64,000 nucleotides of DNA, taken from Thermoplasmata archaeon. GTDB lineage: Archaea; Thermoplasmatota; Thermoplasmata; Lutacidiplasmatales; UBA184. The DNA lies in contig JAKASQ010000001.1 of NCBI GenBank assembly GCA_021828195.1, positions 169,202-233,201 of the forward strand, in the 5' to 3' direction. Shown here piece after piece: positions 29,491 to 57,364 of the stretch (positions are counted from its first letter, which is position 1; each line of letters starts with the position of its first letter). The position numbers and the translations under genes were made by a program. The notes under the pieces were generated by a model. It was not told where the DNA came from. It was given only the letters and a program-made list of their open reading frames with translations, and did no database searches.

Positions 29491-29492
29491 CC

Positions 29493-34028: not shown

Positions 34029-34535
34029 TTACCTCGCCCGGCCGCCTGCGATGAGGAGACTCAGAAAGGCCAGGGTGAACGCGAGCAGGAAGCCCACCGA
34101 CATCCCGTACGAGAAGGCGTTGTTCTGCCCGGAGAATAGAAACTCCATGCCGCTGATTCCCGCGCCCAGTACGGCGGCAAACGTTCCCCCGGTCGTGGCG
34201 AGGAGTAGTGTGTTTCGGGAGAGCGCGGATGCCGCGAAGGTGAGAAGGGCGAGGACGCCCAGGACCATGCCGGTGAGCATGTGGGCCATTACGGCCCCCA
34301 TTCCCGGTAGGAACATCAGCTGCATCATTCCGTACATCCCAAGAATGGGCGACGGAAGCGTTACATACAGGTTGACGAACATTCCCAGCACGAATTGGAG
34401 GGCCAACAAACCGAGCTCCACCGACACTAGGGCGACGAGAATCGGGTGACGGGTCCTCGCGACTCTGGGGGCTTCGCGCGTCGTGACGCGGATCGAATCG
34501 ACAGCAGCCGGCGGCATGGAGGAGAGCCTCGTCAT
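34029..34535 (-). CDS. Hypothetical polytopic membrane protein (Met/Gly-rich TM helices)
   Basis: Hydrophobic segments throughout; divergent from first paralog gene; no family recognised. Confidence 0.35.
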   Translation of the reverse strand: MTRLSSMPPAAVDSIRVTTREAPRVARTRHPILVALVSVELGLLALQFVLGMFVNLYVTLPSPILGMYGMMQLMFLPGMGAVMAHMLTGMVLGVLALLTFAASALSRNTLLLATTGGTFAAVLGAGISGMEFLFSGQNNAFSYGMSVGFLLAFTLAFLSLLIAGGRAR

Positions 34536-34644
34536 GGGGGAACGCCACACAGGCCTTAGACTTAACTCGGGACAACCCCAGTCCGCAGGCGGGCAGGCTT
34601 CTTCTCCTCTGACGACCTGTCGCCACCGGCGGTCTGGCTCCGGA

Positions 34645-35391
34645 ATGTCAGGACTGTTCGTACCGGCCGAGTTCGCCGCGATGTTCATGGCCGTCGTGGC
34701 GGTCGTTCTCGGGGTACTGTTCGCGTTTCCGACGACGTTTCGGCTGCGGTCTCCGGGAAGGCGTGTGGCCTTCCTCCGCCTCCTGGTTGGGACGGTCCTA
34801 GCCGTGGATGCGACTCTCCAGTTTCTGCCCGGAGCTTCCCCACAGGTGGCTTACCTGCTCGTGGTCGGAGCCGGTCAGGAACAGCCTGCGCTCTCCGGGT
34901 GGTTCTCGTACTGGGCCAGCGTCATCGCCGGAGACCCCGGATTCTGGTGGTATGGAACGGGAATCCTCATGGCGTGCCTCGCCACCTGCCTGATACTCGG
35001 AGTCGCCCGCAGGCTGGCGTATGTCACGGGGTCCTTCTTCGGCCTGTTGCTTTGGGCGATCCCGAACGGGTTCGGCGGTCCCTACGTCGCCCCCCACACC
35101 GACGTCGGCGCCGGCCTGCTTTACGCCCTCCTGTTCCTGTTCCTCCTCCAGATGGATTCGGTATCGGGCCCGGTCCGTCTTGCCGGCGACGTCATGCTCG
35201 AACGCAGGTGGCCGAAATGGCGAGTGCTCGGCGGCAGGTCATTTCGCCCGCTGCCGCCGCCCGAATCCTACGAGCGACGAGTGACCCGTGATCTATCCGC
35301 GGAGGACTACGTGCCGTCCCCGGATCCTTGCTTGACCGAAGACGCACCCAAGACGCTCGGTCCGCCACCGCAACTCGGGTCGAACCGATGA
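34645..35391 (+). CDS. Paralogous 4-5 TM membrane protein, copy 1 (FGGPY family; possibly DoxX/DoxD-like)
   Basis: LRLLVG..W..DA.LKFLP, WWYGTG, LWAIPNGFGGPYVAPHTDVGAGLLYALLFL conserved blocks shared with six other ORFs in the window. Confidence 0.6.
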   Translation: MSGLFVPAEFAAMFMAVVAVVLGVLFAFPTTFRLRSPGRRVAFLRLLVGTVLAVDATLQFLPGASPQVAYLLVVGAGQEQPALSGWFSYWASVIAGDPGFWWYGTGILMACLATCLILGVARRLAYVTGSFFGLLLWAIPNGFGGPYVAPHTDVGAGLLYALLFLFLLQMDSVSGPVRLAGDVMLERRWPKWRVLGGRSFRPLPPPESYERRVTRDLSAEDYVPSPDPCLTEDAPKTLGPPPQLGSNR

Positions 35392-35508
35392 TCGAGTCGT
35401 CGCTTCCGCGGGAAGGTGTCGCCGTTGTGGAGCGAGGCACGAAGCCGTGCGCCCTGAAGAGTGCAGAGGGTTCCACACCCGCCGAACGGGAATGGGAGTG
35501 ACCGACGA

Positions 35509-36246
35509 ATGAACGATATCGCCCTGGCCTTCGAGGTGGCCGTCCTGCTGTTCGTCGGCGTGACGGTGGGAGTCGCTTTGGCGGCTGCCGTGGGAGGACG
35601 GCTCCGAACGATCCTCACCCCGTCGGTTCGCACGACGGTACTTCGAATCTTGTTCGGGGCGGTCTGGATCGCGGATGGCCTGCTCCGCTTCGTTCCCGGG
35701 ACCTACGCGCAGCTTTCGTACTGGCAGGTCGTCATGATCGAGGACGGTCAGCCGCCTTGGCTTCTTGGTTGGCTCACTTTCTGGGCGGGCATCATCGCGG
35801 GTACTCCGGCCTTGTGGTGGTACGGGTTTGGGCTGATCGAGCTCGCGCTCGGCTTCTGCCTGTTCACGGGGTTCCTGCGCCGACCCATCTACCTTGTCGG
35901 TCTGGCCGTCAGCATCCTCCTCTGGACGGTCCCCCAAGCTTTCGGAGGACCCTACGGTCCCGGAAGCACCGACATGGGCACGGGGATCCTCTATGCCGTA
36001 ATCTTCCTCGCCTTACTCCATCTCGACTCGATTTCGGGACCGCCCCGGTTCACGCTCGACACGACCGTGGGACGGCAGTGGCCGGCGTGGCAACGGCTGG
36101 TCCAAGCCCGGGTCCCGACGCAGCCAGCCGCTGCACCGCGGGAATCCAGCGTCAGCCTCGGACGGTCAGCTGACCGTACATCCCTGATTGAGCGTGGCCC
36201 GGCATCATACAGAGATACCAGAACGTCCCCGGGCCCGCGAAGCTGA
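35509..36246 (+). CDS. Paralogous 4-5 TM membrane protein, copy 2
   Basis: LWTVPQAFGGPYGPGSTDMGTGILYAVIFLALLHLDS; same block order. Confidence 0.6.
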   Translation: MNDIALAFEVAVLLFVGVTVGVALAAAVGGRLRTILTPSVRTTVLRILFGAVWIADGLLRFVPGTYAQLSYWQVVMIEDGQPPWLLGWLTFWAGIIAGTPALWWYGFGLIELALGFCLFTGFLRRPIYLVGLAVSILLWTVPQAFGGPYGPGSTDMGTGILYAVIFLALLHLDSISGPPRFTLDTTVGRQWPAWQRLVQARVPTQPAAAPRESSVSLGRSADRTSLIERGPASYRDTRTSPGPRS

Positions 36247-36874
36247 GCGTGGCAGCGGTAGTCTCGTAGACCGGGTTGGCACTCGTTGCCGTCATTCCAT
36301 CGACCATCATCGACCCCACGGAAAGCCAGCAGCCGCTCCCGTCACCCATTCCCATCATCCCTCCCCCGCTCATCATCGGCATGTACGGATATGGCGGCGG
36401 CTGGGTTGTCAGGGCGAAGTCGTGGGACTCGTTGTCCATGTTGATGAATTCGAACCGCACCGGCTCTCCCGACGGCACGGAGACCTGCGGGTTCACGAGT
36501 CCGTAGCTCAGGAAGTAGTTCCCGGAGTGAGGATACCACACGGGCGCCCCCTCGACGAGCAACGTCGCCCCGGGGGCAGTGACCGTGATCGAGTTCATCG
36601 CCGGAGTTTCGCTGACCCCGGGGGGCAATGAGTTTTCTTCGGTGAACGTCTGATTGTTGATCGTTGAGACCGTCGGGTCGTGCTGAGCGACCGAGGAGCA
36701 TCCCGCCGGAGCCAGTGCCGGCTTCTCGACGATCATATAGGCAAAGGCAATCCCCGCGAGACCGACGAGGATCGCCACCACCAGAACGACGACCACGGGC
36801 CCGAGAGGACGACCCGGAGGGTGCCGGCCGGGCGCCGACGAGTCGATCGTGACATTCTCCGTGCCGGCCGTCAT
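36152..36874 (-). CDS. Membrane-anchored cupredoxin (type-1 copper site) with Met-rich segment
   Basis: N-terminal TM anchor; ESHDFAL (His1) ... FWYLCMMPGHAQSGMYGQLTV = C-x2-P-G-H-x3-G-M type-1 Cu ligands; PPYPYMPMMSGGGMMGMGDGSGCW Met-rich motif. Confidence 0.65.
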   Translation of the reverse strand: MTAGTENVTIDSSAPGRHPPGRPLGPVVVVLVVAILVGLAGIAFAYMIVEKPALAPAGCSSVAQHDPTVSTINNQTFTEENSLPPGVSETPAMNSITVTAPGATLLVEGAPVWYPHSGNYFLSYGLVNPQVSVPSGEPVRFEFINMDNESHDFALTTQPPPYPYMPMMSGGGMMGMGDGSGCWLSVGSMMVDGMTATSANPVYETTAATLSFAGPGTFWYLCMMPGHAQSGMYGQLTVRG

Positions 36875-37515
36875 GGGTTCTGCTGGCCCGGAGGAGTTGC
36901 TGGGACCTCATCAGGTCTGCGAGAGACCCTCTCCGAACGGCGGAATACCGAAGTAGAGACCTCCGCCCAGCGGGCCCAGCCCGGCCAACTGCGCTCGATC
37001 CAGCCGTCGACGGTCCCCACCTTCGCGGATGGGTCGGCGTCGAGCACCAACAGGAACAGGAATGCGATCGCGTAAATGACACCCACTCCCACGTCAAAAG
37101 TGCCGACGTCGTAAGGGCCCCCGAACCCATTGGGAACCGCCCAAATGAACAAGCTCAGGCCCATCCCCCCGAGGTAGGCTGTCTTTCTCAAGAGTCCCAG
37201 GGTGAGCGAAACGCACAACGCGAGCTCGAGAAAAGTGACGACCCCCACGTCCATTGCCGCGTATTGCTGGGATTGGACGACCCAGAAGGCATACCAGCCG
37301 GAGAGCCAGGAAGGCTGGCCGATGCTCGCGGCGAGAACGCTCTCGGAGAACCAGAACGGAGTCTGCGGGAAGAACGCGAGCGCGGCATCGATTCCCCAGA
37401 CGAATCCGAAGATCATACGGGCTGACCGACGAACCGCTCCGCGATGGCGGAGGATCCACCCCTCACCATGCTCCGCGACGCCGATCATCGCAGGATGTCT
37501 CCCTCGGGATTGCAA
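36871..37515 (-). CDS. Paralogous membrane protein, copy 3 (lacks first TM helix), co-oriented and overlapping with cupredoxin gene
   Basis: IFGFVWGIDAALAFFPQ...WAVPNGFGGPYDVGTFDVGVGVIYAIAFLFLL; 4-nt overlap with downstream cupredoxin. Confidence 0.55.
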   Translation of the reverse strand: MQSRGRHPAMIGVAEHGEGWILRHRGAVRRSARMIFGFVWGIDAALAFFPQTPFWFSESVLAASIGQPSWLSGWYAFWVVQSQQYAAMDVGVVTFLELALCVSLTLGLLRKTAYLGGMGLSLFIWAVPNGFGGPYDVGTFDVGVGVIYAIAFLFLLVLDADPSAKVGTVDGWIERSWPGWARWAEVSTSVFRRSERVSRRPDEVPATPPGQQNP

Positions 37516-37716
37516 CCACTCATCCCGCTACTTGTGGGGGCCGTATGAACCGCGGGGGCGGCGCCCGTCGTGTCCTCTGTTGGCACTTGTCGATGCGGCC
37601 GTCCAAGAGCCCGACCGTTCGGTGGGAGAATCCGTCCGTCGACTACTGGTGACCCAACACCTCGTTCCCGTCCGTTGCCCGCTCGCAGTCAATCTTTATA
37701 CCAGCCGTCCGGGTAG

Positions 37717-38577
37717 GTGCGACGCATGACCGACTGGGAGCGCGTCGAACAGCTTCGCGCCGACGGGGTCAGTTGGGACAAGGTAGCCAGTGATCGGAAG
37801 GCCGGTTTCCACCCCCCTCCGGGCGCCGACGCCGGCCGCGCCCTGCGGACTCTCTATTTCCAGCGTCGCTCCCGGAGCAGCCGTTCGGGGCCCCAAACTC
37901 CAGGAGGTTCCGAGCGCCGGGGAGACCGGGCCGGCAGAGGCGGACCGAAGCGATTGCGCTCGATCATAATCGGCGGTTCCGCCGTCACCGTGCTGATACT
38001 GGTGATCTACCTCATCCTCACGTCGGGTGTTCTCTTCGGGGGTCCGCCGAAGCCAGGAACCAACCCGGGTCCGGGGGCAGCTGGGACTCTTGCGGAGTTC
38101 AACTACCTCAGCCAACAATCCACCGACGCGTGTGTGTGGACGGGAGTCAACCTCGGCGATGAAACGTCGTACGTCAACTGGATCAACGGATTGGCGGATA
38201 ACACCTACATCCAAGGCTCGTGTTGTAGCCCGATGGATTTCACCCCCGACTATTCGTCCCAGATTCCCGGCCTCACGAGTTACGCCTCGATCTCCCTCAT
38301 CCCACCGGATCCCTACAATGTGGTCGCGCACACGGCGAAAGCCGATGTCGCCCATGCCGGTGACGCGCTCACCTCGAGCCAGCAATCCGTCTTCAACACG
38401 GCGGCGAGCAACACGAACGACAACGGCTGGTGCTGCTGCCAGTGCTGGGCCTACTACGCTCATGAGGGCCTGGCGAAGGCCCTGATCGTGCAGTACGGCT
38501 ACACTGCCCAGCAGGTGGACACGGTCATCAACCTCGAAGACTGCTGCGGCGGGCCCGGCCCGATGAACATGCCGTAA
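37717..38577 (+). CDS. TM-anchored Cys-rich protein of unknown function (CC, CCCxC, CC motifs)
   Basis: Basic cytoplasmic N-term, one TM helix (IIIGGSAVTVLILVIYLILTSGVLF), then extracytoplasmic Pro/Gly/Asn-rich domain containing GSCCSPMDF, NGWCCCQCWAYYAHEG, LEDCCGGPGPMNMP. Confidence 0.5.
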   Translation: MRRMTDWERVEQLRADGVSWDKVASDRKAGFHPPPGADAGRALRTLYFQRRSRSSRSGPQTPGGSERRGDRAGRGGPKRLRSIIIGGSAVTVLILVIYLILTSGVLFGGPPKPGTNPGPGAAGTLAEFNYLSQQSTDACVWTGVNLGDETSYVNWINGLADNTYIQGSCCSPMDFTPDYSSQIPGLTSYASISLIPPDPYNVVAHTAKADVAHAGDALTSSQQSVFNTAASNTNDNGWCCCQCWAYYAHEGLAKALIVQYGYTAQQVDTVINLEDCCGGPGPMNMP

Positions 38578-38622
38578 CCTCCCGGGGTCGCCCTGCCCCT
38601 CCTCGGAAGGTCGCAAGGAACC

Positions 38623-39213
38623 GTGTCGACCGCGGGTGTTCGGGACCGAACCCTGCCGACGTGGTTCTTCCACAATCCGCTTCGACGGTGGTTCAAGAAG
38701 CCGGGCCGCCTGATTGACTTCTGCCCGCCAAGGTCGGGGGACGTGGTCGCGGATCTTGGTGCCGGAGGCGGGTTTTTCCTGGCAGAGCTAAGTCGAAGAG
38801 TCGGGTCAGCGGGACGGATCTACGCCGTCGATATCGACGACGGCGCCCTGTCGTTGGCGCAGCGGGTCGCCACCACCTTGGAGGTGACGGACCGGGTGGA
38901 GTTCATCCATTCCTCCGCAGCTTCGGTGCCATCCATCCCTTCCGGCGGTGTGGATTACATCCTTTCGAACGGGCTCCTTTGTTGCCTGATCGACAAGGAG
39001 CGAGCGATGGAGGAGATGTGGCGAATCCTCAAGCCGGGTGGCCGTGCCTTGGTGACCTTCGTAACGATTGGTCCGCGCTTTACCGCCCGCGGTAGGGCCC
39101 TGCGGACATCGGAGCGGAGATTCCGCGAGTTGCTTTCGAGACGTTCGTGGGAGGTAATCCCAGGCAAAGCCAAGCCGTTCTCGCGGCGGTTCATCTTGAG
39201 GAAGTTCGGTTGA
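38623..39213 (+). CDS. Class I SAM-dependent methyltransferase
   Basis: VVADLGAGGGFF motif I, IYAVDIDD post-I, DYILSNGLLCCL motif II, LKPGGRALV motif III. Confidence 0.65.
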   Translation: MSTAGVRDRTLPTWFFHNPLRRWFKKPGRLIDFCPPRSGDVVADLGAGGGFFLAELSRRVGSAGRIYAVDIDDGALSLAQRVATTLEVTDRVEFIHSSAASVPSIPSGGVDYILSNGLLCCLIDKERAMEEMWRILKPGGRALVTFVTIGPRFTARGRALRTSERRFRELLSRRSWEVIPGKAKPFSRRFILRKFG

Positions 39214-39626
39214 CCCCCGTTGATAAGAAACCGGATGGACAAGGTCCGGCGCCGTCGCCATCGAACTCGGTCTCGGACCGCGGCTGCGTCAATCGGCAGT
39301 TCATCCGCAGTCGACTACTCTACAGGGAGGGCCGCCGACACTCCGGAGCGTACCGCTCAGCATCCGCAGGATCTCGAAGTAGGGGAGCGATGTGAGCGGT
39401 TCGCGCCGACCACGAGGGCCTCAACTCTGGGCTGACGGACCCGGTGAGGGCGTGCGCGATCCGCTGCACTCTTTCCCGGCGCCAATCTCCTGAGCGCCGT
39501 CGACCTGCGTGCCGTTCCGACGTGGTCAGCGAATGGGTTCGAGGCGGCCGCGGATTCCCGCCTCCAGAGTCGATTCTCGTGGACCGCGACGTCGAAGGAT
39601 GCGAACGCGACTGGAGGTCGGACCCT

Positions 39627-40217
39627 TCATTGCCGAGGCGCCGCCAGCCAGCGCGACAACCTTGAGAATCTCGCGCGTCCGGTCGCCCAGATCCAGTGGT
39701 CGACGGCCACGTACTTCCCAGCTCCTCCGGTGAAGAGAATCAGATAGATCAACAGGTAGAGCGGATGCGGTCCCACGTCGGTACCACCGGGAATCTGAAA
39801 CGTGCTCAGGAATTGGGTCGCGAGGAAGATGACAGAGGCTAGCCCGCCCACAATGCACGCCAAACGGGTGGTGACCCCGAGAACAAAGGCGATGGCGAGG
39901 TAGGCCGTGAGGAGGGCGGTCATCCATGCAAACGCGGTCGCATGGGCCGCAACAAAATTCGCGACACTGGGGCCTCCAAGACTCGTAGGTGCAAAGGAGA
40001 GCACAGTCTCCCGGAATGTGGGGAAGAACTGATTGGCCGGATCCACGATGAAGATCATGTTCAGGACCCAGACGAGGCCTACCCCCACGCGAAGAAGGTC
40101 GATGGACATCCCCTTTGGGTCGGATTGCCACAAGTCACGCAGGTGTCCGTACCAGGTCCGCCCGGACGGCCCGACGGAAGGGGATTCGGACTTGTTCTCG
40201 TCCCGACGGTTCACCAT
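39627..40217 (-). CDS. Divergent paralog of the FGGPY membrane family, copy 4
   Basis: TFQIPGGTDVGPHPLYLLIYLILF corresponds to FGGPY..TDxGxGxLYAxxFL block; downstream of second cupredoxin-like gene on same strand. Confidence 0.45.
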   Translation of the reverse strand: MVNRRDENKSESPSVGPSGRTWYGHLRDLWQSDPKGMSIDLLRVGVGLVWVLNMIFIVDPANQFFPTFRETVLSFAPTSLGGPSVANFVAAHATAFAWMTALLTAYLAIAFVLGVTTRLACIVGGLASVIFLATQFLSTFQIPGGTDVGPHPLYLLIYLILFTGGAGKYVAVDHWIWATGRARFSRLSRWLAAPRQ

Positions 40218-40360
40218 TCCACCGCTGGACGACTTGACAAGCGAAAACCCCTTGGGTCGACGTCCGACCAGCGTAGCGCTCTCTGTTCAACTACCGGTGA
40301 GTGAGGGCCGGGTGCTCGCGACCGAGTCTCGGCGCACCTTCGTGTCGCTTCGGTACAAAG

Positions 40361-40930
40361 CTACGAGACGGTCATCGTGCCGCTCATGTACCCGGGAGTG
40401 CTCATTGGTCCCCCCGTGAATCCCCCCGGGCCGGTTCCGCATGGCGACATGCAGAACCACGAGAACGTCCCGGCGTTGGTGACGTCGACTGTGAACGACA
40501 CGACGCTCTGCCCCGGACTCAGAACGTTCAAGCCGAACGCTGGAATCGAGAACGTGTGCGCGACATTGGAGATCGGGACCGTGCTGTACGGCGTGCCGTT
40601 GATCGTCTCCACTCCGTTAACGGTCCCCTTTACGGCACACGGGCACCCCGTCCACTCCGCGACGGCGTCGTGATCGGTGATCGTAAAGGCGACCTTTCCC
40701 TGGGGGACGTCAAAGCTCGTGGGGGAATACTGGGGCCAGCCGGTCGTGGTGTTGAACGAGACCGTGAGGTTGACGTACGACGTCTGACCCGAGGTCGACG
40801 TGGTCGTCGCCGGACCTGCGGCACTGGGAAACGTCACCAGCAAGACACCCGCCGAAACCACGACGGCAATTGCCAACACGCCTGCGACGGCGTTGAAGTA
40901 ATCCTGATCCTTCATCGTTCTTCCCTCCAC
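40361..40930 (-). CDS. Secreted/anchored cupredoxin-like protein with atypical Cys motif
   Basis: Signal/TM anchor, Thr/Ser-rich linker (GPATTTSTSGQTS), beta-rich domain with AHTFSIPAFG and FSWFCMSPCGTGPGGFTGGPMSTPGYMSGTM (C-x3-C-G as in CuA, but no His-x2-Met directly after). Confidence 0.45.
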   Translation of the reverse strand: MEGRTMKDQDYFNAVAGVLAIAVVVSAGVLLVTFPSAAGPATTTSTSGQTSYVNLTVSFNTTTGWPQYSPTSFDVPQGKVAFTITDHDAVAEWTGCPCAVKGTVNGVETINGTPYSTVPISNVAHTFSIPAFGLNVLSPGQSVVSFTVDVTNAGTFSWFCMSPCGTGPGGFTGGPMSTPGYMSGTMTVS

Positions 40931-41487
40931 TTACCGGATTCCCTGAGGCGGTCCTTCGCGGAACAAGAGCGACTGTACGGGCACGTATTCTATGCCCGCG
41001 TACGGGGATAACCTCTCCCACTCGCATTCTCGGGGTTGAGAACGATGGGTCCCGAACCGGTCGACGGGACGGACCAGGACCGGTTGACCGCCATCCCCCG
41101 GGAAGGGGTCAAACCGCTGGCGAAGATGGTCCGGGTGACGTCCCTCCATTCCAGGCCCTGTGTCTCGACCTTCACCGGGCTCCCTCGTTCGGCAGTTCCC
41201 GCCGGCAAAGGCGCCCTCCATCGCAGTCGAGAGCTCGAATGTCTCCGGGACCACTAAAGGCGGGTGAGCGACCTGGGCACTCCGGGTTGGCTCCCAACCC
41301 AGGACTTTCGACGCACGTCCACGGTTCACTCTCTGACGAGAAACGGACCCGGAGGTCGCGCCGTAAGTGCTGGTCTCGTTCCCATAGCGTCAGTCTCTGT
41401 GAGCGGATCGTTGTTGAAGAGGCGCCCCGTTGGTCAGGGGGGCCCGGGGACGGGTGGTGGGGACGCCCGTTCGGAGTAGCCCGCAAG

Positions 41488-42384
41488 TCAGTGCGGCTGA
41501 CCTCCGCAAGTGCAATCGGGAGCTTCCACCTGGATCGTCACATGTCGTATCCGAAAACGCTGGCGGACGATGTCCTGGGCGACGTGAGTCACGTGATCGT
41601 CTTTGGGTTCCGCCTCGAGCACTAGGTGGACGCTCATCGCCTCCGAGCCGGAAGTGAGCGTCCAGACGTGGAGGTCGTGGACCGCCCGCACGCCCGGGAG
41701 GTCGCTCAACGAGTTTTCGACCTCTGCCGGGTTGATGTGCGTCGGCGTCCCCTCGAGCAAGATAGTGAGCGTGTCCCGGGAAAGCCGGAAGGCGAAGACC
41801 CCAATCAGCGCCGCGACGAAGAGGGTCGCCACAGGGTCCGCAATCTCAATCCCTCCAAATAGGATCAGGGCCCCGGCGACCACTGCGCTGAGTGAACCGA
41901 GCACGTCAGAGAGGATGTGCAGGTACGCCGCGCGAATGTTGATGTTCAATCGGCCTCGGACGCGGAGGACGCGGGCGATGGCGAGATTGGCGACCAGGGA
42001 GAGCGCGCCCACGACCAGCACGACCGGACCATGAACGGGCGCGGGTGTTCGGAAGCGCAGGTATCCCTCGACGACGAAGAGGGCGGCCAAACCCCAGAGG
42101 ATGAGGGCATTCGCAAACGCGGCGACTACCTCGCCCCGGCCGTGGCCGAACGAGTGGGCCGAGTCGGCCGGTCGGCTCGCCCAAGTGACAGCAAGGAGCG
42201 CGAGCCCTAGGGCGGCCAGGTCGGTGAGGTAGTGACCGGCATCCGCCAATAGGACGAGGGAGTTGGCCGCGAACCCACCGATGAGCTCTATCACCATGAT
42301 TACCGACCCGGCGGCGACTACCCAGAGGAGTTGCCGCCGATTTTCCCGGGCGAAGGCGCGAAGGTGCTCGGATTCGTTGCCCAT
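41488..42384 (-). CDS. Cation diffusion facilitator (CDF) family metal efflux transporter
   Basis: LLADAGHYLTDL, HSFGHGR, HILSDVLGS motifs; C-terminal cytoplasmic domain ending in CTCGGQPH; start at MGNESEHLR. Confidence 0.85.
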   Translation of the reverse strand: MGNESEHLRAFARENRRQLLWVVAAGSVIMVIELIGGFAANSLVLLADAGHYLTDLAALGLALLAVTWASRPADSAHSFGHGRGEVVAAFANALILWGLAALFVVEGYLRFRTPAPVHGPVVLVVGALSLVANLAIARVLRVRGRLNINIRAAYLHILSDVLGSLSAVVAGALILFGGIEIADPVATLFVAALIGVFAFRLSRDTLTILLEGTPTHINPAEVENSLSDLPGVRAVHDLHVWTLTSGSEAMSVHLVLEAEPKDDHVTHVAQDIVRQRFRIRHVTIQVEAPDCTCGGQPH

Positions 42385-42720
42385 GGAATGCTGGTCGCTC
42401 CCAGTGCCGCCGAACCGCTTTAACCGAGACGGTCCGGGAGAGATCCCCTCCTCCGTGTTCAGCTTCGACCGCGATCTCTCGGTGTCATTCCTAGGCTTCC
42501 TCTCCCCCCAAGCCCACCGTTGATTCTCGGGGCCGGTCCCACGAGGGATGGGGTACAGGTCTACAGGGGTCCGCGCCGGCCCCCCAGTCAAGAGCATTGG
42601 TGAGGCCGGGGGATGGCCTCGTGCCGTCGGCACGGGAGGCGCCCGAGGAGGGGCCGTCGGAGTCCATGCGCGACTCTCTTCAGCCTCGTGGCCCTCTCCC
42701 AAGGCGGGGTTAACCGAGGG

Positions 42721-43437
42721 ATGACAGTTCTCTTCCTGCCGGCCGAGGTCCTGGCAGTTTTTGTTGCAATCTCAGCCGCTGGACTCGGCGTACTCCTCAC
42801 TGCCCCCGAGACCTTCCGCCTCCGCTCTCCGGGAGGTCGAGTTGCCTTGCTTCGAGTGCTCGTCGGCGCCCTTTGGGCCACCGATGCCACGCTCAAGTTC
42901 CTACCGAGAGCCCCTCCCGTACTCGCATATTGGCTTGTGGTCGGCGCGGGCCAGGATCAACCGGGGCTCTCTTGGTGGTTTTCATACTGGGCTGGCGCAG
43001 TTGGTGCGAATCCTGCCCTCTGGTGGTACGGCACCGGTGCGCTCGAGGCGCTCTTGGCGACTGCCCTGCTGCTCGGATTCGCCCGCCGCCTTGCATATGT
43101 TGCCGGATTCCTTCTCAGCCTCTCCCTATGGGCAATCCCAGAGGGATTTGGCGGCCCCTACCTTTCGAGCACGACCGATGTCGGCGCGGGCCTGCTTTAC
43201 GCGCTTCTGTTCTTGATGCTCCTTCAGATGGATTCCGTCTCGGGTCCGGCACGGTACGCGGTCGACGCAGCCTTGGGGCGCCGCTGGCCCAGTTGGCGCT
43301 TCATCGGAGGCGGTTCCTCCCGTGTCGTTTCGGCCCACGGCAGCGAAAGCCGCGAGCAGGCGTCCCCTCCGCTCGTGGCGGATCCGATCATCGAGGGTCG
43401 CCGGGGAGAGGTTCCCAGAGCGGGTGCAGACCGATGA
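42721..43437 (+). CDS. Paralogous membrane protein, copy 5
   Basis: LWAIPEGFGGPYLSSTTDVGAGLLYALLFLMLLQMDS; most similar to copy 1 (same block order and near-identical C-terminal motif). Confidence 0.6.
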   Translation: MTVLFLPAEVLAVFVAISAAGLGVLLTAPETFRLRSPGGRVALLRVLVGALWATDATLKFLPRAPPVLAYWLVVGAGQDQPGLSWWFSYWAGAVGANPALWWYGTGALEALLATALLLGFARRLAYVAGFLLSLSLWAIPEGFGGPYLSSTTDVGAGLLYALLFLMLLQMDSVSGPARYAVDAALGRRWPSWRFIGGGSSRVVSAHGSESREQASPPLVADPIIEGRRGEVPRAGADR

Positions 43438-43551
43438 CCCATACTCCTCGCCCTTCGGCGATCCACGTAGCCGGCCTCCCAGCTCCCGGCCCGCCCGTGC
43501 CGCTGGGGACCTCTTCGCGCCGCCGGCAAGCCAGGTTCGGGTGACAAGAAC

Positions 43552-44232
43552 ATGGGCGTAGTCGTTCTTGCGTTCGATGTTTTCCTCCTCCTGACGATGG
43601 GCACGATAGTGTCGATAGCCCTGGTGGCGGGCTTCGAGAAGGAACTGAAGACTATCTTCTCCCCGTCGGGCCGGACGGGCTTCCTACGGATTCTCTTCGG
43701 TGGGGTCTGGCTGGTTGACGGCCTGCTCAGGTTCCAAGCGGGAGCGTCCCCGCAGCTCTCCTATTGGATGGTCGTCATGGCCGGCCAGGGACAGCCCGCA
43801 TGGCTCTCGGGGTGGTATGCCTACTGGACAGGCTTCATTGGCGGCGCCCCGACATTCTGGTGGTACGGGGTCGGCTCCATCGAACTCGTGATCGCGGTCT
43901 GTCTTATCGCGGGATTCCTCCGCAAGCCGGTGTATCTCGTCGGCCTGTGTCTCAGCCTCTTCCTCTGGACGGTGCCCGAAGGTTTTGGTGGACCCTACGC
44001 TCCCGGGAGCACCGACATGGGGGCTGGAATCCTGTACGCCGTCGTGTTTCTCGCCTTGCTGCATCTCGACTCGGTTTCGAGTCCCCCCCGGTTCGCTCTC
44101 GACACGGTGATCGCGCGGCGGTGGCCGACGCGGAGACGGCACGTCCCGGCCGAAGTCTCGATTTCGGCGGTCGTCGCACAGGAGGATTCCGTACTCGCCG
44201 TCGGCTCGTCGGAAACCGGTACGTACCGGTGA
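43552..44232 (+). CDS. Paralogous membrane protein, copy 6
   Basis: LWTVPEGFGGPYAPGSTDMGAGILYAVVFLALLHLDS; most similar to copy 2. Confidence 0.6.
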   Translation: MGVVVLAFDVFLLLTMGTIVSIALVAGFEKELKTIFSPSGRTGFLRILFGGVWLVDGLLRFQAGASPQLSYWMVVMAGQGQPAWLSGWYAYWTGFIGGAPTFWWYGVGSIELVIAVCLIAGFLRKPVYLVGLCLSLFLWTVPEGFGGPYAPGSTDMGAGILYAVVFLALLHLDSVSSPPRFALDTVIARRWPTRRRHVPAEVSISAVVAQEDSVLAVGSSETGTYR

Positions 44233-44331
44233 GCCCTCCGGGCGGAGCATCCAAACCCGCCTAGGGACCCCTTGCTACCTCTGACCGCGGGTAGCCCTGG
44301 CTCAGCCACGGTTCCAGCCGGTCCCATCCCC

Positions 44332-44850
44332 TCAGCCGCCTCCCATATCCCCGTCCGCAGTCGAGCGGCGTTGCGGAACTACTTCGGCCCACCGGTCCCA
44401 GCCGGGTATCCTCCGCTCGATCCGGGCATCCAGAGTTCCCCGGCTCGAATCGTGGCTGACCTCCAGGGCCAGGAGGAGTAGGAACGCGAGGGCGTAGACG
44501 AGCCCGGTTCCGATATCGAAGCTACCGGGGACGTACGGACCGCCAAACCCCTCCGGCACGGCCCAGATGAGGAGACTGAGGGCGATGCCGCCGATGTAGG
44601 CGAGCTTCCTCAGGAACCCGGTGAACAGCGCGAACGCCAAGGCGAACTCGAGGCCGGTGACGAGGGAGACATCGAGTGCCGCGCTCGCGCTCGTCTGGTG
44701 GACCCAGAAGGCGAACCAGCTACCGAGCTAGGCCGGCTGGCCGATGCTCGCTGCCAGGACCCTCTCGGAGAACCAGAAGGGGGTCTGGGGCAGGAACTTG
44801 AGCGCCGCATCGAGCCCCCAAACGAGTCCGAAGAGTTTCCGGAGGGAGGA
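44332..44850 (-). pseudogene. Paralogous membrane protein, copy 7, disrupted by in-frame TAG (minus-strand codon at 44728-44730) and lacking a start
   Basis: By-eye translation KLFGLVWGLDAALKFLPQTPFWFSERVLAASIGQPA*LGSWFAFWV...WAVPEGFGGPYVPGSFDIGTGLVYALAFLLLL; stop replaces the conserved Trp (SIGQPSWLSGWY in copy 3). Confidence 0.55.
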
Positions 44851-45387
44851 TCGTATTTGGCCAAGGTTCCGTTCGGCCCATTCATCCTCGGATACCAAGG
44901 GACCGCTCCGACCGCGGAGACGGGGCGGGCCGCTTATACGAGCGATGTCCGAATCGGATCGCGACAGCGGTGCTTTACTGTTGACCGCCGAGAGATCGGC
45001 CGCCTTCAGGCCGTGGTGACGTGGGTCGGAGCGACCGGAGTATCAACACGACGAGAAAGGCGATGAGAAGCCCGCCGATTGCCACACCAATGAGCATGTA
45101 CACCCACATGAGGGCCGACATGGCGGGACCGGTCATGCCGAAACCCATGGCCCCACCCGCGAGGACATGTCGCACATCGCGAGCGAGATGGCCGTGGCAA
45201 TAGAAGCCTCTTGCGGAACTCACGACCAAGCTTGAGACCGGGGCCGGCCCGCGGGACTCGGGAACACGGCGATTGCCCATGGCGGAATGCAGGGCGCGCT
45301 CTTCCTTGCCTAGACTATCTCCAACCCGGGACTTGGCGAACCAGAGTGGCCTCTGCCAGCCAGCGACCCGAACACGGGGATCGAGTT

Positions 45388-45786: not shown

Positions 45787-46140
45787 TCAGCTGACGACTC
45801 GGATTCCTTCGCGGATGGTTTGAATGAGCTTTTCCTGCTCGGCCTTGGGCGTGTTCTCTAGAGCCTCAAGCATGTCCTCGAGAATCAGCCCGGTCGCCTT
45901 CTCGAGCGCCCCCCGAACGGCCATCAACTGGAGAAGGACGTCGGCGTACGGCTGATTCTCATCCAGCATACGAATCACGGCATCGAGATGTCCACTCGCG
46001 CGAGACATCCTACCCCGCACAGCACCTTGCAAGTGATGCTCCATACGGCCATCCCCATGCCGGGAGGGGGATTTACCCTTTTTTCCTGTCGCCCTCCTGC
46101 GCAGAAGAAGGTCAAGTTCGTTCCCTTGTCCTTCCGTCAA
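45787..46140 (-). CDS. CsoR/RcnR (DUF156)-family regulator-like protein lacking the canonical Cys/His metal ligands
   Basis: HLQGAVRGRMSRASGHLDAVIRMLDEN.PYADVLLQLMAVRGALEKATGLILEDML resembles CsoR helical core, but Ala replaces the conserved Cys (YCID position) and no HxxxC/H at C-terminus; real start may be M33 (46044). Confidence 0.45.
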   Translation of the reverse strand: MTEGQGNELDLLLRRRATGKKGKSPSRHGDGRMEHHLQGAVRGRMSRASGHLDAVIRMLDENQPYADVLLQLMAVRGALEKATGLILEDMLEALENTPKAEQEKLIQTIREGIRVVS

Positions 46141-46220: not shown

Positions 46221-47117
46221 ATGGTTGCCGTGGCGGCAGTGGGAGGCCGCGGATCCCAGTCACAGCCGGAGCCGCGTTCCAGGACTCCCACGTTAGGGAC
46301 CACTGGAGCGCTCTCGGCAGAAACTCTTGAGATCAACCGGGCCGCGATCGAGCTCGAGTGTACCCGTCTCTCGTACTCGTACCCGGCGATCAAGGGCTCA
46401 CCCGCGAAACCTGTCTTCCACGGCATCGACATCAAAGTGTGCAAGAATGAACTCGTGGCCATCGTCGGGCCCACGGGCGCAGGGAAGTCCACGATCCTCC
46501 GTTGCCTCGGGGGATTCGTTCACCCGAACGAGGGGCACGTCTACCTGCACGGACAAGAAGTCCTCCGCCCTTCGTCGAAGATCGTCCTCATCCACCAGTC
46601 AATCGCCACGTTCCCGTGGATGACGGCCTTGGACAATGTGAAGCTCGCTCTGACCTGCAAGAAGGTGGATGAGAAAGAAGCGGAACGAACGGCGGCCGCG
46701 ATGCTCGACCTCGTCGGACTAGGCGCCAACAAGTCGAGTTACCCGAAGGAACTAAGCGGCGGGATGCGGCAGAAGGTGGCGGTCGCGAGAGCGCTCGCCG
46801 CGTCCCCATCGATCCTGTTGATGGACGAGCCGTTCGTCCATCTGGACGAGATCGCGGCGGAGGAGCTGCGTCGGGAGATTCACTCCCTGGTCTTCAACCC
46901 CGAAAGCACGCTGGATGCGGTCGTTCTCGTCTCCCACAACCTGACCGAGGTGGTCGAGCTCGCGGACCGCGTCTACGTGATGAATGGTTCGCCCGCAACC
47001 GTGATCGACGAGTTCGGCATCGACCTCCCGCGTCCGCGAGCCTTGCGGGACTCCTCCTTCCTTCTCAGCGTTGACCACCTGATGGGCGACCTGAACACCC
47101 CGAAAACGAAACCGTAG
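46221..47117 (+). CDS. ABC transporter ATP-binding protein (NitT/TauT-like importer family)
   Basis: GPTGAGKSTIL Walker A, LSGGMRQKVAVARAL signature, LLMDEPF Walker B, H-loop VSHN. Confidence 0.85.
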   Translation: MVAVAAVGGRGSQSQPEPRSRTPTLGTTGALSAETLEINRAAIELECTRLSYSYPAIKGSPAKPVFHGIDIKVCKNELVAIVGPTGAGKSTILRCLGGFVHPNEGHVYLHGQEVLRPSSKIVLIHQSIATFPWMTALDNVKLALTCKKVDEKEAERTAAAMLDLVGLGANKSSYPKELSGGMRQKVAVARALAASPSILLMDEPFVHLDEIAAEELRREIHSLVFNPESTLDAVVLVSHNLTEVVELADRVYVMNGSPATVIDEFGIDLPRPRALRDSSFLLSVDHLMGDLNTPKTKP

Positions 47118-47128
47118 GGACCACCGCC

Positions 47129-48745
47129 ATGGAGCCGGTACTCGTCGTTCTGGCCACCCTCGCGACGTTGGGTCGGGTATGGCTCCTCATCGGTCTCTCC
47201 ATCCTCTCCGGATGGGCCTTGGCATTTCTCTCGATCCGAAGTCGGGCCTTCGAAACGGTCTACGTCCCGCTGGTGAACGCGTTCGAGTCCATCCCGGTCA
47301 TCGCGTTCCTTCCCATCGTCCTGGTGGTCTTTGTCTCTCGGCTCGGTGGCCCCCTCGGGAGCGAGCTCGCCGCCGACTTCCTCGTTTTCGACGCGGTTGC
47401 CTGGAACGTCTGGATCGGAGCCTACCAGAGCTTCAAGACCGTTCCGGAACACCTCGGGGAAGTCGCGGAGAACTACAACTTCGGCGTGGTGCGAACTCTC
47501 TGGAACCTCTTCATCCCACACTCGATCCCGCGCATAACCTCCAATCTCTTCTCGAGCTTCGCGGATGCCCTGTTCTACATCTCCGTCAGCGAGGTCTTCA
47601 CCATCGGGCTTCACACCTACTCGACCTTCGGGATTGGGACCCTCATCGTCATGTTCACCGCGAACGGCGATATATCCGACCTGATCCTGGCCTTGACAGC
47701 GATCGGAGTCGCGGTCATCCTCACCACGCTGGCCCTCACTCGCCTCTCCCGGAAGGCCGTGGCCCGCTACGGTCTCGATACGCGGGGAGACATCACGACC
47801 CGACCGGGACCCGCGAACGCTCGGTCGCGCTGGCTCCGCGCGTTCGGGGGCCCGAGACGCAGGATCTCGGCTCGCCTCACCCGGACCGCCGCCGAACGAG
47901 ACCTGCGAACCGGCGCGCCGACACCGACGAAAACCGGAATGCTGGTTAAGTGGGGGGTTTACGCCATTTTGCTGGGCATAGCGGCCTACATCCTCTACGG
48001 TGCGGCCCAATTGATCGTCTCGGTGCCGGGGACGGAGTGGAACTCGCTGTTCGCGCAAACCCCCTTCTTGCTCCTTTCGATGGGTGCCGATTACCTTCGG
48101 GTCTTCGCGGTCGCGGGTGCCGCGCTCGCCGTGTCGATCACGCTGGGATACTACCTCGCGACCCACCCTCGCGCGAATGAGTTCGTTGCTCCTGTAGTTC
48201 AGACGGTCGCCGCGTACCCGGCCCCGACGTACTTCCCACTCTTTGTGGGCGCCACCATCGGGTTCCTCGTCGTCGCCTTCCCTTTCGGGTACGTCGAGTT
48301 GTACGTGTTCATCCTGGGTTTCCTGGCCTGCTTCTACTACGTCTTTTTCGACTTCTGGATCGGCGTGCAAGCCATCCCTTCGGAGTTCTGGGAGGTGATG
48401 GAAAACCATGAGCTCACGTTCCGCCAGCGGATGCGACGGGTCATCCTACCCGCGACCTTCCCGTACCTGATCACGGGGATATCTAGCACGATCAACAGCG
48501 CCTGGGCGGGAATCGCCATCGGCGAGTTCTGGCCGAATATCGTCGGAAATCGAACCCTGGTCGTACAGATCGGGATGATGAAGTTCATCGGCGAGAATCT
48601 GGCGGCCGGGAACGTCGCCTCGGCCGCCTGGGTCTCCTTGCTGTTCGCCGTCGTCGTCGTGATCTACGGCCTCTTCTTCACGCGGAACCTGATGGACCTC
48701 GCCCGTCGTCGGTACGTGGTCGAAGAGGGCGTCTACGCCGGGTGA
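47129..48745 (+). CDS. ABC transporter permease with two fused transmembrane domains
   Basis: 538 aa; two successive ~250-aa permease-like halves each with 5-6 TM segments (second begins MLVKWGVYAILLG). Confidence 0.7.
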   Translation: MEPVLVVLATLATLGRVWLLIGLSILSGWALAFLSIRSRAFETVYVPLVNAFESIPVIAFLPIVLVVFVSRLGGPLGSELAADFLVFDAVAWNVWIGAYQSFKTVPEHLGEVAENYNFGVVRTLWNLFIPHSIPRITSNLFSSFADALFYISVSEVFTIGLHTYSTFGIGTLIVMFTANGDISDLILALTAIGVAVILTTLALTRLSRKAVARYGLDTRGDITTRPGPANARSRWLRAFGGPRRRISARLTRTAAERDLRTGAPTPTKTGMLVKWGVYAILLGIAAYILYGAAQLIVSVPGTEWNSLFAQTPFLLLSMGADYLRVFAVAGAALAVSITLGYYLATHPRANEFVAPVVQTVAAYPAPTYFPLFVGATIGFLVVAFPFGYVELYVFILGFLACFYYVFFDFWIGVQAIPSEFWEVMENHELTFRQRMRRVILPATFPYLITGISSTINSAWAGIAIGEFWPNIVGNRTLVVQIGMMKFIGENLAAGNVASAAWVSLLFAVVVVIYGLFFTRNLMDLARRRYVVEEGVYAG

Positions 48746-49960: not shown

Positions 49961-50665
49961 CTATACACTGGGGGTAGCCACCCCCGATTCCGACCCTTTT
50001 CCGCACACCGAGTTTTGCGCCGGCGGGCGCGGGACCCGGACCTTCCGGCACGTTCCCGCAGGCAACCCTACGTGTTGGGCGACCACCTTCCATGGAAGAC
50101 CCCGCTCGCGGAGACCCCGAATCTTCGCGGCCAGCTCGGCCGTGACACGCCGCGGGCGTCCCGGTGGCCTCCCACTCCGCGTTCGCCGTCGTCCCGACTT
50201 GATCTCCTGCATGGCGACCCGCACCCGCTCCGATCGGCGCTGGGACTCGAACGACGCGATCACTGGGAGCAGAGCGAGCAGCACGTCCCGACCGAGGTTC
50301 GGCTTCCCGTCTCCGGGGGTGTCGAGCGTCGGCTCCCTCAAGCTGTGGAACGAGACACCGAGTCGCTCGAGGTCGAGGACCGCTTGCGTGGCTCGGGTGA
50401 ACGTCGCCTCTCGGCTGAATCGGTCAAGCGCCCAGACGAGGAGGTGATTCCAAGGGCGGTGGCGCAGGTTGGCCTCCGCGAGGAGCCGGTCATACTCGCG
50501 GCGTTCCACCTTCCCGGTCCCGCTGACCTTCTCGGCGTAGACCTTGACCACGTCCCAGGCGCGCCGCTCCGCCTCGGCCCGGAGCTCCCGCTCCTGGCCA
50601 TCGAGATCCTGGTCCTCGGTGCTGACCCGGGCGTAGATCGCGACGGACGTTGGCGGGGTGGTCAT
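49961..50665 (-). CDS. Serine recombinase (resolvase/invertase family)
   Basis: VAIYARVSTEDQDLDGQ catalytic Ser motif, C-terminal HTH (LPWKVVAQHVGLPAGTCRKV). Confidence 0.8.
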   Translation of the reverse strand: MTTPPTSVAIYARVSTEDQDLDGQERELRAEAERRAWDVVKVYAEKVSGTGKVERREYDRLLAEANLRHRPWNHLLVWALDRFSREATFTRATQAVLDLERLGVSFHSLREPTLDTPGDGKPNLGRDVLLALLPVIASFESQRRSERVRVAMQEIKSGRRRTRSGRPPGRPRRVTAELAAKIRGLRERGLPWKVVAQHVGLPAGTCRKVRVPRPPAQNSVCGKGSESGVATPSV

Positions 50666-50853
50666 GGATCTCCTGTCAGCTGGTCGGCGGTGACAAAGCC
50701 CGGCAGATCGGAGGACCCGCGGGGCTTCGGCCGATCGGTGAACCACCGGCGACAGATCCGGCAGACGCGCACGACCCTCGGGCCCCGACGTATCCGATAG
50801 GCTCGAGTCCTCGAGTGACCGCACGGCAACCGTGGTTCATCAGGCTCGGTCAT
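50662..50853 (-). CDS. Small zinc-ribbon protein
   Basis: PCGHSRTRAYRIRRGPRVVRVCRICRRWF (C-x-H...C-x2-C). Confidence 0.35.
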   Translation of the reverse strand: MTEPDEPRLPCGHSRTRAYRIRRGPRVVRVCRICRRWFTDRPKPRGSSDLPGFVTADQLTGDP

Positions 50854-53208: not shown

Positions 53209-53726
53209 GCGGGCTCACCCCCGGTTGCTCCCGCTTTCGCGGCCGAGCCCCCCGCGGAGGTATCAGGAGCCGAGGCGAGGGCGGTCGGTCTTGACGCTCG
53301 GAGATCCCGACCCGAAACGCGAGCGGTCAGGTAGGCGCAGAGGGTCGTGGTCTCGCCCCCGGTTACAGGCTCGCTCGGGGCGGGGAGTGTGGGTGTGTGG
53401 GCCGGGACCTCCGGGACCGTTCGACGCTCGGCCGGTGCAAGGGCACGGGTCTCGGCGGTTGGGTGGGCCCTCCCCGTCGTGCAGCACTCCGTGGGGCAGA
53501 AGGCCGTGCAGATCTGGCACCACCGCCTTCCGAGGTGGCCGCGGAAGCGCCGGTCCTTGGAGTCGTACCAGTGGAACCGCGTGATGTGGCCGCACGCCGT
53601 GCACCGGCGGAGCGAGGAGTCGCCCTCGCGGTACGGGACCGGGGCGATCCGTCCCGCCTTGCCGAGCTCCCGGGTCTTGGCCGCATTTCGCTCCGCGAGA
53701 GTGAGGGGGCGCGGGGGCGCGGTCAT
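53205..53726 (-). CDS. Element-encoded Cys-rich hypothetical protein
   Basis: RRCTACGHITRFHWYDSKDRRFRGHLGRRWCQICTAFCPTECC; no family recognised. Confidence 0.3.
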   Translation of the reverse strand: MTAPPRPLTLAERNAAKTRELGKAGRIAPVPYREGDSSLRRCTACGHITRFHWYDSKDRRFRGHLGRRWCQICTAFCPTECCTTGRAHPTAETRALAPAERRTVPEVPAHTPTLPAPSEPVTGGETTTLCAYLTARVSGRDLRASRPTALASAPDTSAGGSAAKAGATGGEPA

Positions 53727-57308: not shown

Positions 57309-57364
57309 CGAGACTATGGGCGCGCCAGGTGCCTACCCTTCCGAAATGGGGGGTTTCCGCGTGT

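Follow-up and report, generated by a model that had tools for sequence, protein, structure and literature searches.

The window analysed here, a stretch of 64,000 nucleotides from a Thermoplasmata archaeon, carries on its minus strand a gene for a membrane-anchored, CuA-like cupredoxin, a gene for a DoxX/DoxD-like membrane protein downstream of it, and a paralogous pair made up of a DoxX-like protein and a type-1 cupredoxin. The features to which the text refers are the following:

40361 to 40930, minus strand: coding sequence of the CuA-like cupredoxin, 189 residues when read from a GTG at 40930, with the stop codon at 40361-40363.
40832 to 40897, minus strand: N-terminal membrane anchor of the cupredoxin, residues 12-33, FNAVAGVLAIAVVVSAGVLLVT; in the predicted model the helix spans residues 7-33.
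40784 to 40831, minus strand: Ser/Thr/Pro-rich linker, residues 34-49, PSAAGPATTTSTSGQ, with a pLDDT below 50 for residues 34-46.
40364 to 40783, minus strand: cupredoxin domain, residues 50-189, beta-rich in the model.
40637 to 40645, minus strand: C96-P-C98, an extra Cys pair of a Thermoplasmata subclade, nearly invariant in the subclade alignment.
40556 to 40558, minus strand: His125 (in NVAHTF), counterpart of the first CuA His ligand, invariant and aligned with H114 of ba3 oxidase subunit II.
40439 to 40453, minus strand: C160-M-S-P-C164, counterpart of the two bridging CuA Cys, invariant and aligned with C149 and C153 of ba3 subunit II and with CSELC of COX2.
40385 to 40405, minus strand: M176-x5-M182 (MSTPGYM), two invariant Met where CuA has H-x2-M; the loop 161-180 has a pLDDT of 63-66.
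39627 to 40217, minus strand: DoxX/DoxD-like four-helix membrane protein (doxC-type) with the conserved loop PGGTDVGxHPLY, 143 nt downstream of the cupredoxin gene.
36152 to 37515, minus strand: paralogous module in the same island as the CuA-like cupredoxin gene, a DoxX-like gene (36871-37515) overlapping by 4 nt a type-1 cupredoxin gene (36152-36874).

The reading frame at 40361-40930 showed the codon-position profile of a real gene (GC3 of 0.82 in a window of 67% GC), and on this ground, together with its hundreds of homologues, a spurious origin was rejected. The true start is probably the ATG at 40915 (MKDQDYFN...), as the closest homologues begin there and a GGAGGG lies about 8 nt upstream; the product would then comprise 184 residues, as it does in those homologues. 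A Thr/Ser-rich linker, already pointed out in a first-pass annotation made from the sequence, follows the TM helix (residues 12-33, approximately) and may be glycosylated. Three N-x-S/T sequons were counted in the protein.

A cupredoxin fold was predicted for the window protein (AF2 model, pLDDT 82), and the top Foldseek matches of the model were the CuA domains of ba3 subunit II and nitrous-oxide reductase (N2OR). When the family profile was compared with Thermus ba3 subunit II, an E-value of 1.5e-8 was obtained, with H125, C160 and C164 aligned to the ligands H114, C149 and C153. Weak matches to the NCBIfam models CoxB, NosZ and CtaC were located on residues 120-168. Descent from the CuA domain of heme-copper oxidase subunit II is the best explanation for this protein. 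Nevertheless, no Pfam or NCBIfam model reached its cut-off on it: Pfam COX2 (PF00116) gave no match, NCBIfam CoxB (TIGR02866) scored 19.7 bits against a cut-off of 147.7, and Pfam Cupredoxin_1 (PF13473) scored 15.6 bits (E 0.017) against a gathering threshold of 27 bits, a precomputed match to the last model being present in only a handful of relatives. Since it fails both the defining H-x2-M and the curated COX2/CoxB thresholds, the protein should not be filed as COX2.

The window protein keeps the CuA spacing H125-x34-C160-x3-C164-G, with H125 located 35 residues ahead of C160 (residues 156-186 read FSWFCMSPCGTGPGGFTGGPMSTPGYMSGTM). The positions that hold the second His and the Met of CuA, four and seven residues after the second Cys, are taken by P168 and F171. 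No His is found after H125, and Met residues are present at positions 161, 176, 182 and 186. These observations agree with the first-pass annotation, which had described a C-x3-C-G motif lacking the downstream H-x2-M and followed by several Met instead (176, 182 and 186 lie after the Cys pair). It had also named fold prediction and conservation of the Cys pair as checks, and both came out in its favour, the fold as given above and the pair being kept in the homologues collected here. The ligand set of a type-1 site (His...Cys-xn-His-xn-Met) was likewise missing, as no His follows the Cys and a second Cys is found instead. An iron-sulfur or a zinc site was considered and rejected, Met ligands and a cupredoxin scaffold being unsuited to either.

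When 1.84 billion representatives were scanned by HMMER with the profile of the family, the matches made up 928 clusters (at 50% identity) at E<=1e-3, of which 362 remained at E<=1e-10. A word-indexed search retrieved 47 close relatives; none of them carried a name that points to a function, and all came from Thermoplasmata MAGs or from metagenomes. Members were detected by genome scan in Thermoplasmata, Sulfobacillus and other Bacillota, Acidimicrobiia and other Actinomycetes, and Streptosporangiaceae, and protein searches extended the range to Ktedonobacteraceae and Nitrososphaerota. Many MAG sample names place the relatives largely in acid-mine and soil metagenomes. In the sources and literature searched on the motif or on the DoxX-cupredoxin pair, neither a name nor a description of the family was found. 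In bacterial relatives the TM anchor is replaced by lipoprotein signal peptides (LAGC, AAGC, LAAC, NACS), which places the cupredoxin domain outside the cytoplasm.

Columns I84, H125, T126, G154, C160, C164, M176, M182 and G184 were invariant in an alignment of 26 sequences from several phyla. Among the collected relatives, whose number is a lower bound on the family (at least 279), the pattern C-x3-C-(x3-16)-M-x5-M was found in 271 of 279, and the eight exceptions were truncated, frameshifted or carried a one-residue indel. Trp stands two residues ahead of the first Cys in 235 of the 279 domains (Trp-x-Cys), the second Cys is preceded by Pro in 228 and followed by Gly in 254, and the CuA Met position (seven residues after the second Cys) is occupied by F, W, M or Y with no conservation. 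The C96-x-C98 pair, present in 68 of the 279, was confined to a Thermoplasmata subclade and absent from the wider family. A His anywhere between the second Cys and the second Met was found in only 6 of the 279 relatives. Judged by these alignments, the His, both Cys, M176 and M182 are essentially invariant across the family, and this conservation, together with the scarcity of a loop His, argues that the site is a selected His-Cys2-Met2 set and not a decayed CuA. The suggestion of a novel or degenerate copper site can thus be narrowed: a novel, conserved variant fits, while degeneration does not, given that H125, C160, C164, M176 and M182 are all invariant in the 26-sequence alignment.

The same conservation bears on the idea that the protein is a relic, that is, a former subunit II that has lost its CuA site and retains a structural role like that of CyoA, or else a genuine subunit II whose oxidase has gone unrecognised. 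In a single-sequence comparison with the PDB, the window cupredoxin was best matched by CyoA with an engineered CuA site, its layout of a single TM helix and a cupredoxin domain resembles ba3 subunit II, and some family members are tagged by JGI as COG1622, oxidase subunit 2. Subunit II of natural quinol oxidases no longer has the Cys ligands, whereas here the five candidate ligands are invariant across phyla. Further, neither a COX1 gene nor any other COX1/NosZ catalytic module adjoins the cupredoxin in the window or in any Thermoplasmata locus, and where an oxidase operon does adjoin, as in Actinobacteria, it carries its own canonical CuA-bearing CtaC. With the ligands conserved and no catalytic subunit linked, we consider a relic or a conventional subunit II to be extremely unlikely.

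The protein encoded at 39627-40217 matched Pfam DoxX weakly (E 0.098), and neither DoxX nor DoxD from Pfam was matched at E<=0.05; a weak match to the NCBIfam model HvfX (DoxX-type) was also recorded, and JGI names doxC-type homologues COG YphA/DoxX. Of 32 DoxX-like sequences that were aligned (the paralogues from the window, homologues of the doxC type and a single protein from bacteria), seven matched DoxX (best 6.5e-6) and four matched DoxD. The most conserved motif of the partner is the loop PGGTDVGxHPLY between TM3 and TM4, in which H151 is 98% conserved. Given the outside location of the cupredoxin, the TM1-2 and TM3-4 loops of the DoxX-like protein would also lie outside. No conserved Met or Cys-rich transport motif was detected in the doxC-type partner, which argues against a copper channel. 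DoxX/DoxD proteins are known to recur in copper-stress and thiol-redox operons, with no known mechanism.

Over a range of 47 to 88% cupredoxin identity, 14 of the 23 distinct Thermoplasmata loci had a DoxX-like gene beside the cupredoxin gene or fused to it. Most related Thermoplasmata loci that possess a doxC-type gene have it as the immediate neighbour of the cupredoxin gene: it lies downstream in the window and in loci L003, L004, L005, L006, L013, L014, L016, L018 and L019, and is divergent to it in L007. A single fused DoxX-cupredoxin reading frame was found in L015 and in L048, and a double DoxX-like gene in L037. Altogether, four independent natural fusions were identified (P0271, P0249, P0049 and the L015 reading frame), with the order DoxX-like protein, basic linker, TM helix, cupredoxin. 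In bacteria, Bacillota loci carry one DoxX-like gene on each side of the cupredoxin gene, a double DoxX-like gene closes the operon in Acidimicrobiia, and in Streptosporangiaceae a double DoxX-like protein is fused to Sco1/SenC, which has a CxxxC of its own. Diamond et al. (2022; PMC9038741) describe a subfamily, subfam17112, of proteins with five TM helices and a C-terminal cupredoxin, encoded close to amo/pmo in Ca. Angelarchaeales; its architecture matches that of the present fusions, and it may correspond to the fused form of the family.

The window contains seven intact DoxX-like paralogues and a split one, all inside 11 kb. One of them belongs to the paralogous module, where its gene overlaps, and is translationally coupled to, that of a type-1 cupredoxin (36152-36874, minus strand) with a full ligand set (NESHDF...FWYLCMMPGHAQSGMYG) and rusticyanin/sulfocyanin-like character (SoxE, 1.1e-6; rusticyanin, 2.6e-23). 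The presence of this canonical protein bears out the description of the product of 40361-40930 as a second cupredoxin; the comparison with sulfocyanins that had been proposed for the latter does not apply to it and fits this neighbour. The pair of DoxX-like protein and type-1 cupredoxin is kept in L005 and L006. Adjacency and fusion, together with this conserved pair, indicate that a DoxX-like protein and a cupredoxin form a recurring two-gene module, one version of which contains an ordinary electron carrier.

Respiratory genes were frequent in the wider surroundings of the family. In about 10 Streptosporangiaceae loci, a family member is the first gene of a ctaC-ctaD operon, followed by ctaC (with an intact CuA motif, CAELCGLWHGAM), ctaD, a probable ctaE, Caa3_CtaG, a gene for a small protein and one for a UbiA-family heme O synthase. 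Divergent from it are genes for a response regulator, a histidine kinase, a TlpA-like redoxin and the DoxX-Sco1 fusion. The best NCBIfam match of this response regulator was the heavy-metal CopR/CusR class, below the cut-off of that model; it is the only one near relatives that comes closest to CopR/CusR, the other bacterial two-component systems being of generic NarL or OmpR types, a picture that favours neither copper nor redox regulation. In Acidimicrobiia, two to four tandem family copies follow a NarL-type two-component system and precede a TAT-exported NrfC/DsrO-like 4Fe-4S protein, an NrfD/DsrP-like membrane subunit of the quinone-interacting kind, another family copy and the double DoxX-like gene. 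A SoxL2-like Rieske protein is encoded adjacently in the Thermoplasmata loci L004-L006 and L037, and in L001 and L010 the family gene is surrounded by genes for FNR-like, Rieske, CDGSH and ferredoxin proteins. Five loci from three phyla have, next to the family gene, one for a radical-SAM/SPASM protein (TIGR04053) that comes closest to the heme b synthase AhbD.

The fusions and adjacency to DoxX/DoxD-like proteins, the paralogue paired with a true electron-transfer cupredoxin and the frequent respiratory neighbours favour a redox role. We therefore put it at about an even chance that the window protein is the outward-facing, copper-binding His-Cys2-Met2 redox head of a quinone-linked DoxX module.

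Other loci contain genes for metal homeostasis. In Ktedonobacteria-type loci, an OmpR-type two-component system and a SHOCT protein are encoded upstream, and CopA, CopZ, CsoR and a second P-type ATPase within 5 kb. The window gene itself belongs to a segment of 19 kb bounded by a DDE transposase and a serine resolvase. A CDF transporter gene stands directly upstream of it, and the segment further encodes an ABC transporter, a repressor of the CsoR type, a membrane protein rich in Cys and a SAM methyltransferase; no copA is adjacent to the cupredoxin gene in the window. Two further P-type ATPases beside Thermoplasmata members were rejected as copper pumps, that of L023 being of the plasma-membrane H+-ATPase type and that of L048 having a Cation_ATPase_N domain and no HMA domain.

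The CsoR and CopA neighbours fit a copper chaperone or buffer, in which His-Cys2-Met2 would bind Cu(I), possibly after reduction of Cu(II) as in CupA, and would hold or deliver copper on the outer side of the membrane, either to mature CuA or other cuproproteins or to confer copper tolerance, with the DoxX-like partner keeping the Cys reduced or acting as a scaffold. Apart from CsoR and CopA, such a function draws support from the Sco1, TlpA and CtaG genes nearby, from the loop, which is flexible and rich in Met, and from the copper-stress operons in which DoxX genes recur; in one of these operons, DoxX was dispensable (PMC11626156). CupA of Streptococcus pneumoniae (PDB 4f2e), considered together with the N-terminal domain of CopA, does share a cupredoxin fold with a membrane anchor. 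However, it has the motif C...CxMxM and no His ligand, faces the cytoplasm and is encoded with copY and copA, whereas the family is extracytoplasmic and combines CuA spacing with C-x3-C...M-x5-M; no sequence similarity between the two was detectable. Further arguments against a chaperone come from the many loci whose neighbours are respiratory and not concerned with metal homeostasis, from the P-type ATPases beside L023 and L048, neither of which is of the heavy-metal type, from the paralogous DoxX-like protein, whose mate is a genuine electron-transfer cupredoxin, and from the exact CuA spacing and the Trp-x-Cys that the family retains. Taken together, we regard a CupA/Sco-like chaperone or buffer as the chief alternative to the redox head, though a rather doubtful one.

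DoxD and DoxA form thiosulfate:quinone oxidoreductase (TQO), and the probable membership of the partner in the DoxX/DoxD clan raises a further alternative, metal-free thiol chemistry. The C-x3-C would then be a redox dithiol/disulfide or a substrate site, and the cupredoxin the ectodomain of a TQO-like enzyme. Paired with a DoxD-like subunit, it would play the part of DoxA, with sulfur oxyanions or periplasmic thiols as substrates. DoxDA and the "redox-associated" membrane proteins of DoxX/MauE type resemble the proposed module in combining a DoxD/DoxX-like four-helix subunit with an extracytoplasmic one, also in fused form, but the ectodomain of the family is a CuA-type cupredoxin and not DoxA, Pfam DoxA (PF07680) giving no match to the window protein at E<=0.1. 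The origin of the relatives in acid-mine and soil metagenomes and the fusion of DoxX-like proteins to a Sco domain, whose fold is that of thioredoxin and not of a cupredoxin, are in keeping with thiol chemistry. So is one Acidimicrobiia locus type (L032/L033) with a molybdopterin oxidoreductase upstream and a TtrB/DsrO-like plus NrfD-like pair. However, the molybdoenzyme link rests on that locus type, and the NrfC/NrfD-like pair of Acidimicrobiia, which may belong to the nearby molybdoenzyme and not to the cupredoxins, was given less weight. An invariant His and two invariant Met at the canonical metal site of a cupredoxin would moreover be needless for thiol chemistry, and as this mechanism leaves them unexplained, we judge it to be quite improbable.

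Returning to the putative copper-binding redox head, the closest known counterparts are the CuA domains of heme-copper oxidase subunit II (Thermus thermophilus ba3 CbaB, PDB 2qpe/1ehk/2cua) and of N2OR, with which the family shares the cupredoxin fold and H-x34-C-x3-C-G and, in the case of ba3 subunit II, a single N-terminal TM helix. In contrast with CuA, the second His is absent family-wide, two new Met are invariant, the loop is up to about 7 residues longer, and a DoxX-like partner replaces the COX1/NosZ catalytic partner. In AcoP, the site is mononuclear and of the green type-1 kind (His, Cys, His, Met), and neither CxxxC nor a DoxX-like partner is present. Sco1/SenC shares an extracytoplasmic CxxxC and His copper-binding motif, and in related loci it is fused to the same type of DoxX-like protein that is elsewhere fused to the family cupredoxin. 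The site of PmoD spans a homodimer, each chain providing one Cys, one Met and one His, whereas the family has both Cys in one chain with CuA spacing. PmoD/AmoD represents a non-oxidase cupredoxin with an atypical CuA-like centre outside respiration (PMC6189053).

We regard the protein as a member of an unnamed but conserved family of CuA origin, marked by a DoxX-like partner and by a His-Cys2-Met2 set that is a candidate copper site. His, Cys and Met at the "northern" loops of cupredoxins bind copper, and a C-x3-C located there bridges the two Cu of CuA. From this loop chemistry we infer copper binding through H125, C160, C164, M176 and M182, and likewise the nuclearity of a centre that would probably be thiolate-bridged and CuA-like or CupA-like. 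The second His and the Met of CuA are replaced by M176 and M182, carried on a longer, Gly-rich loop. Such a centre would probably be intermediate between CuA (two His and a Met) and the CupA cluster (two Cys and Met; PMC7558416).

The membrane module proposed here would have two parts, the cupredoxin as its redox-active ectodomain and the adjoining DoxX/DoxD-like four-helix protein. This module would move electrons between the quinone pool and other cupredoxins, Rieske/FeS proteins or a terminal oxidase; electron transfer, the coupling to quinone and the direction of electron flow are what we infer from its partners and neighbours. In its boldest form, which we think unlikely though worth stating, an undescribed but natural thiolate-bridged His-Cys2-Met2 copper centre, with asymmetric His/Met terminal ligation, and its DoxX-like partner would constitute a minimal quinol:cupredoxin (or cupredoxin:quinone) oxidoreductase, serving as a novel type of respiratory coupling module in soil and acid-mine Thermoplasmata, Nitrososphaerota and Gram-positive bacteria and replacing cytochrome-based complexes. 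On this bold view, the loop His of the partner (in PGGTDVGxHPLY) may complete the putative copper site in trans.

CuA ranks among the most thoroughly studied metal centres of biology, and, to our knowledge, its ligand set (two His, two Cys, a Met and a carbonyl) is not known to vary in nature. Here, a large family distributed across phyla, with its 928 clusters, keeps the CuA scaffold and the two Cys, with one His swapped for conserved Met. If copper is bound, the family would allow the tuning of a Cu2S2 core by its terminal ligands to be tested on a site made by nature, and would stand between CuA, dedicated to electron transfer, and CupA, dedicated to Cu(I) trafficking. If the proposed module is real, a branch of the poorly understood DoxX/DoxD proteins would gain a concrete partner and a testable role, and the module may be the missing link from the quinone pool to extracellular cupredoxins in acidophilic and soil archaea rich in blue copper proteins.

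The stretch that carries the cupredoxins and DoxX-like genes has a DDE transposase at one border and a serine resolvase at the other, and a CDF transporter, a CsoR-type repressor and an ABC transporter are also encoded between the two. This arrangement may represent a mobile or variable metal/redox island.

Features of the stretch and its borders
31495-33162 (-), DDE transposase, one border
36152-37515 (-), DoxX-like gene and type-1 cupredoxin gene, overlapping by 4 nt
37717-38577 (+), membrane-anchored Cys-cluster protein
41488-42702 (-), CDF transporter ORF with a Cation_efflux domain
45787-46140, CsoR-type repressor
46221-48745, ABC transporter
49961-50824 (-), serine resolvase, other border

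The CDF transporter ORF has an N-terminal extension of about 110 residues ahead of the Cation_efflux domain; it was probably called too long, and a later start is likely. Adjoining the resolvase, five long ORFs with good coding signal follow in succession (51377-59790, -), for which no match was found among Pfam models. Just beyond the island edge, an XPB-type helicase is followed by a DUF790 protein (28039-31061, +), the XPB-Bax1 pair common in archaea.

A segment of approximately 11 kb in the window (34483-45042) encodes eight DoxX/DoxD-like membrane paralogues of the four-helix type, of which seven are intact and one is split by a frameshift, a number that constitutes an unusual local expansion.

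DoxX/DoxD-like paralogues
34483-35391 (+), paralogue
35461-36246 (+), paralogue
36871-37515 (-), paralogue
39627-40217 (-), doxC-type partner
42613-43437 (+), paralogue
43552-44232 (+), paralogue
44332-44640/44728-44898 (-), entry in two pieces

The genes at 36152-37515 are the second DoxX-like and cupredoxin pair of the window. Here, the cupredoxin is rusticyanin/sulfocyanin-like with a complete type-1 ligand set (His, Cys, His, Met), and the pair is also kept in the Thermoplasmata loci L005 and L006. The N-terminus of the 37717-38577 product is likewise kept in L005. This protein, which had no match in searches of Pfam and NCBIfam models, displays striking Cys clusters (GSCCSPMDF, WCCCQCWAYYAHEG and EDCCGGPGPMNMP) and may be another metal-binding protein.

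Several features also recurred at the loci of cupredoxin relatives. Streptosporangiaceae (L040, L042 and L044; about 340-2660, -) encode a fusion between a double DoxX-like membrane protein and a Sco1/SenC domain that carries the motif CTSDC; this fusion adjoins a TlpA-like redoxin, and opposite it lies a cta operon with the cupredoxin first. Further, Bacillota, Actinomycetes and Thermoplasmatales all have loci where the cupredoxin gene or a DoxX-like gene adjoins one for a TIGR04053-family radical SAM/SPASM protein, whose nearest characterised relative is the heme b synthase AhbD.

TIGR04053 radical SAM/SPASM genes, by locus
L025, 6537-7553
L026, 9378-10529
L030, 2092-3366
L037, 7899-9026
L052, 9650-10798

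The cupredoxin itself is multiplied in two ways: the whole domain is tandemly duplicated in one polypeptide in Thermoplasmataceae (P0201, P0197, P0198 and P0056; about 404-408 aa), each copy carrying the full motif, and Acidimicrobiia (L029-L035) possess 2-4 cupredoxin genes in tandem plus an upstream copy that is more divergent.

With regard to the doxC-type partner (39627-40217, -), H151 lies in the loop PGGTDVGxHPLY and is conserved at 98% across the partner family. This loop His is absent from the other DoxX-like paralogues (GSTDMGTG) and from bacterial double-DoxX proteins (GTDPN). H151 could form part of a quinol site or act as a ligand given in trans.
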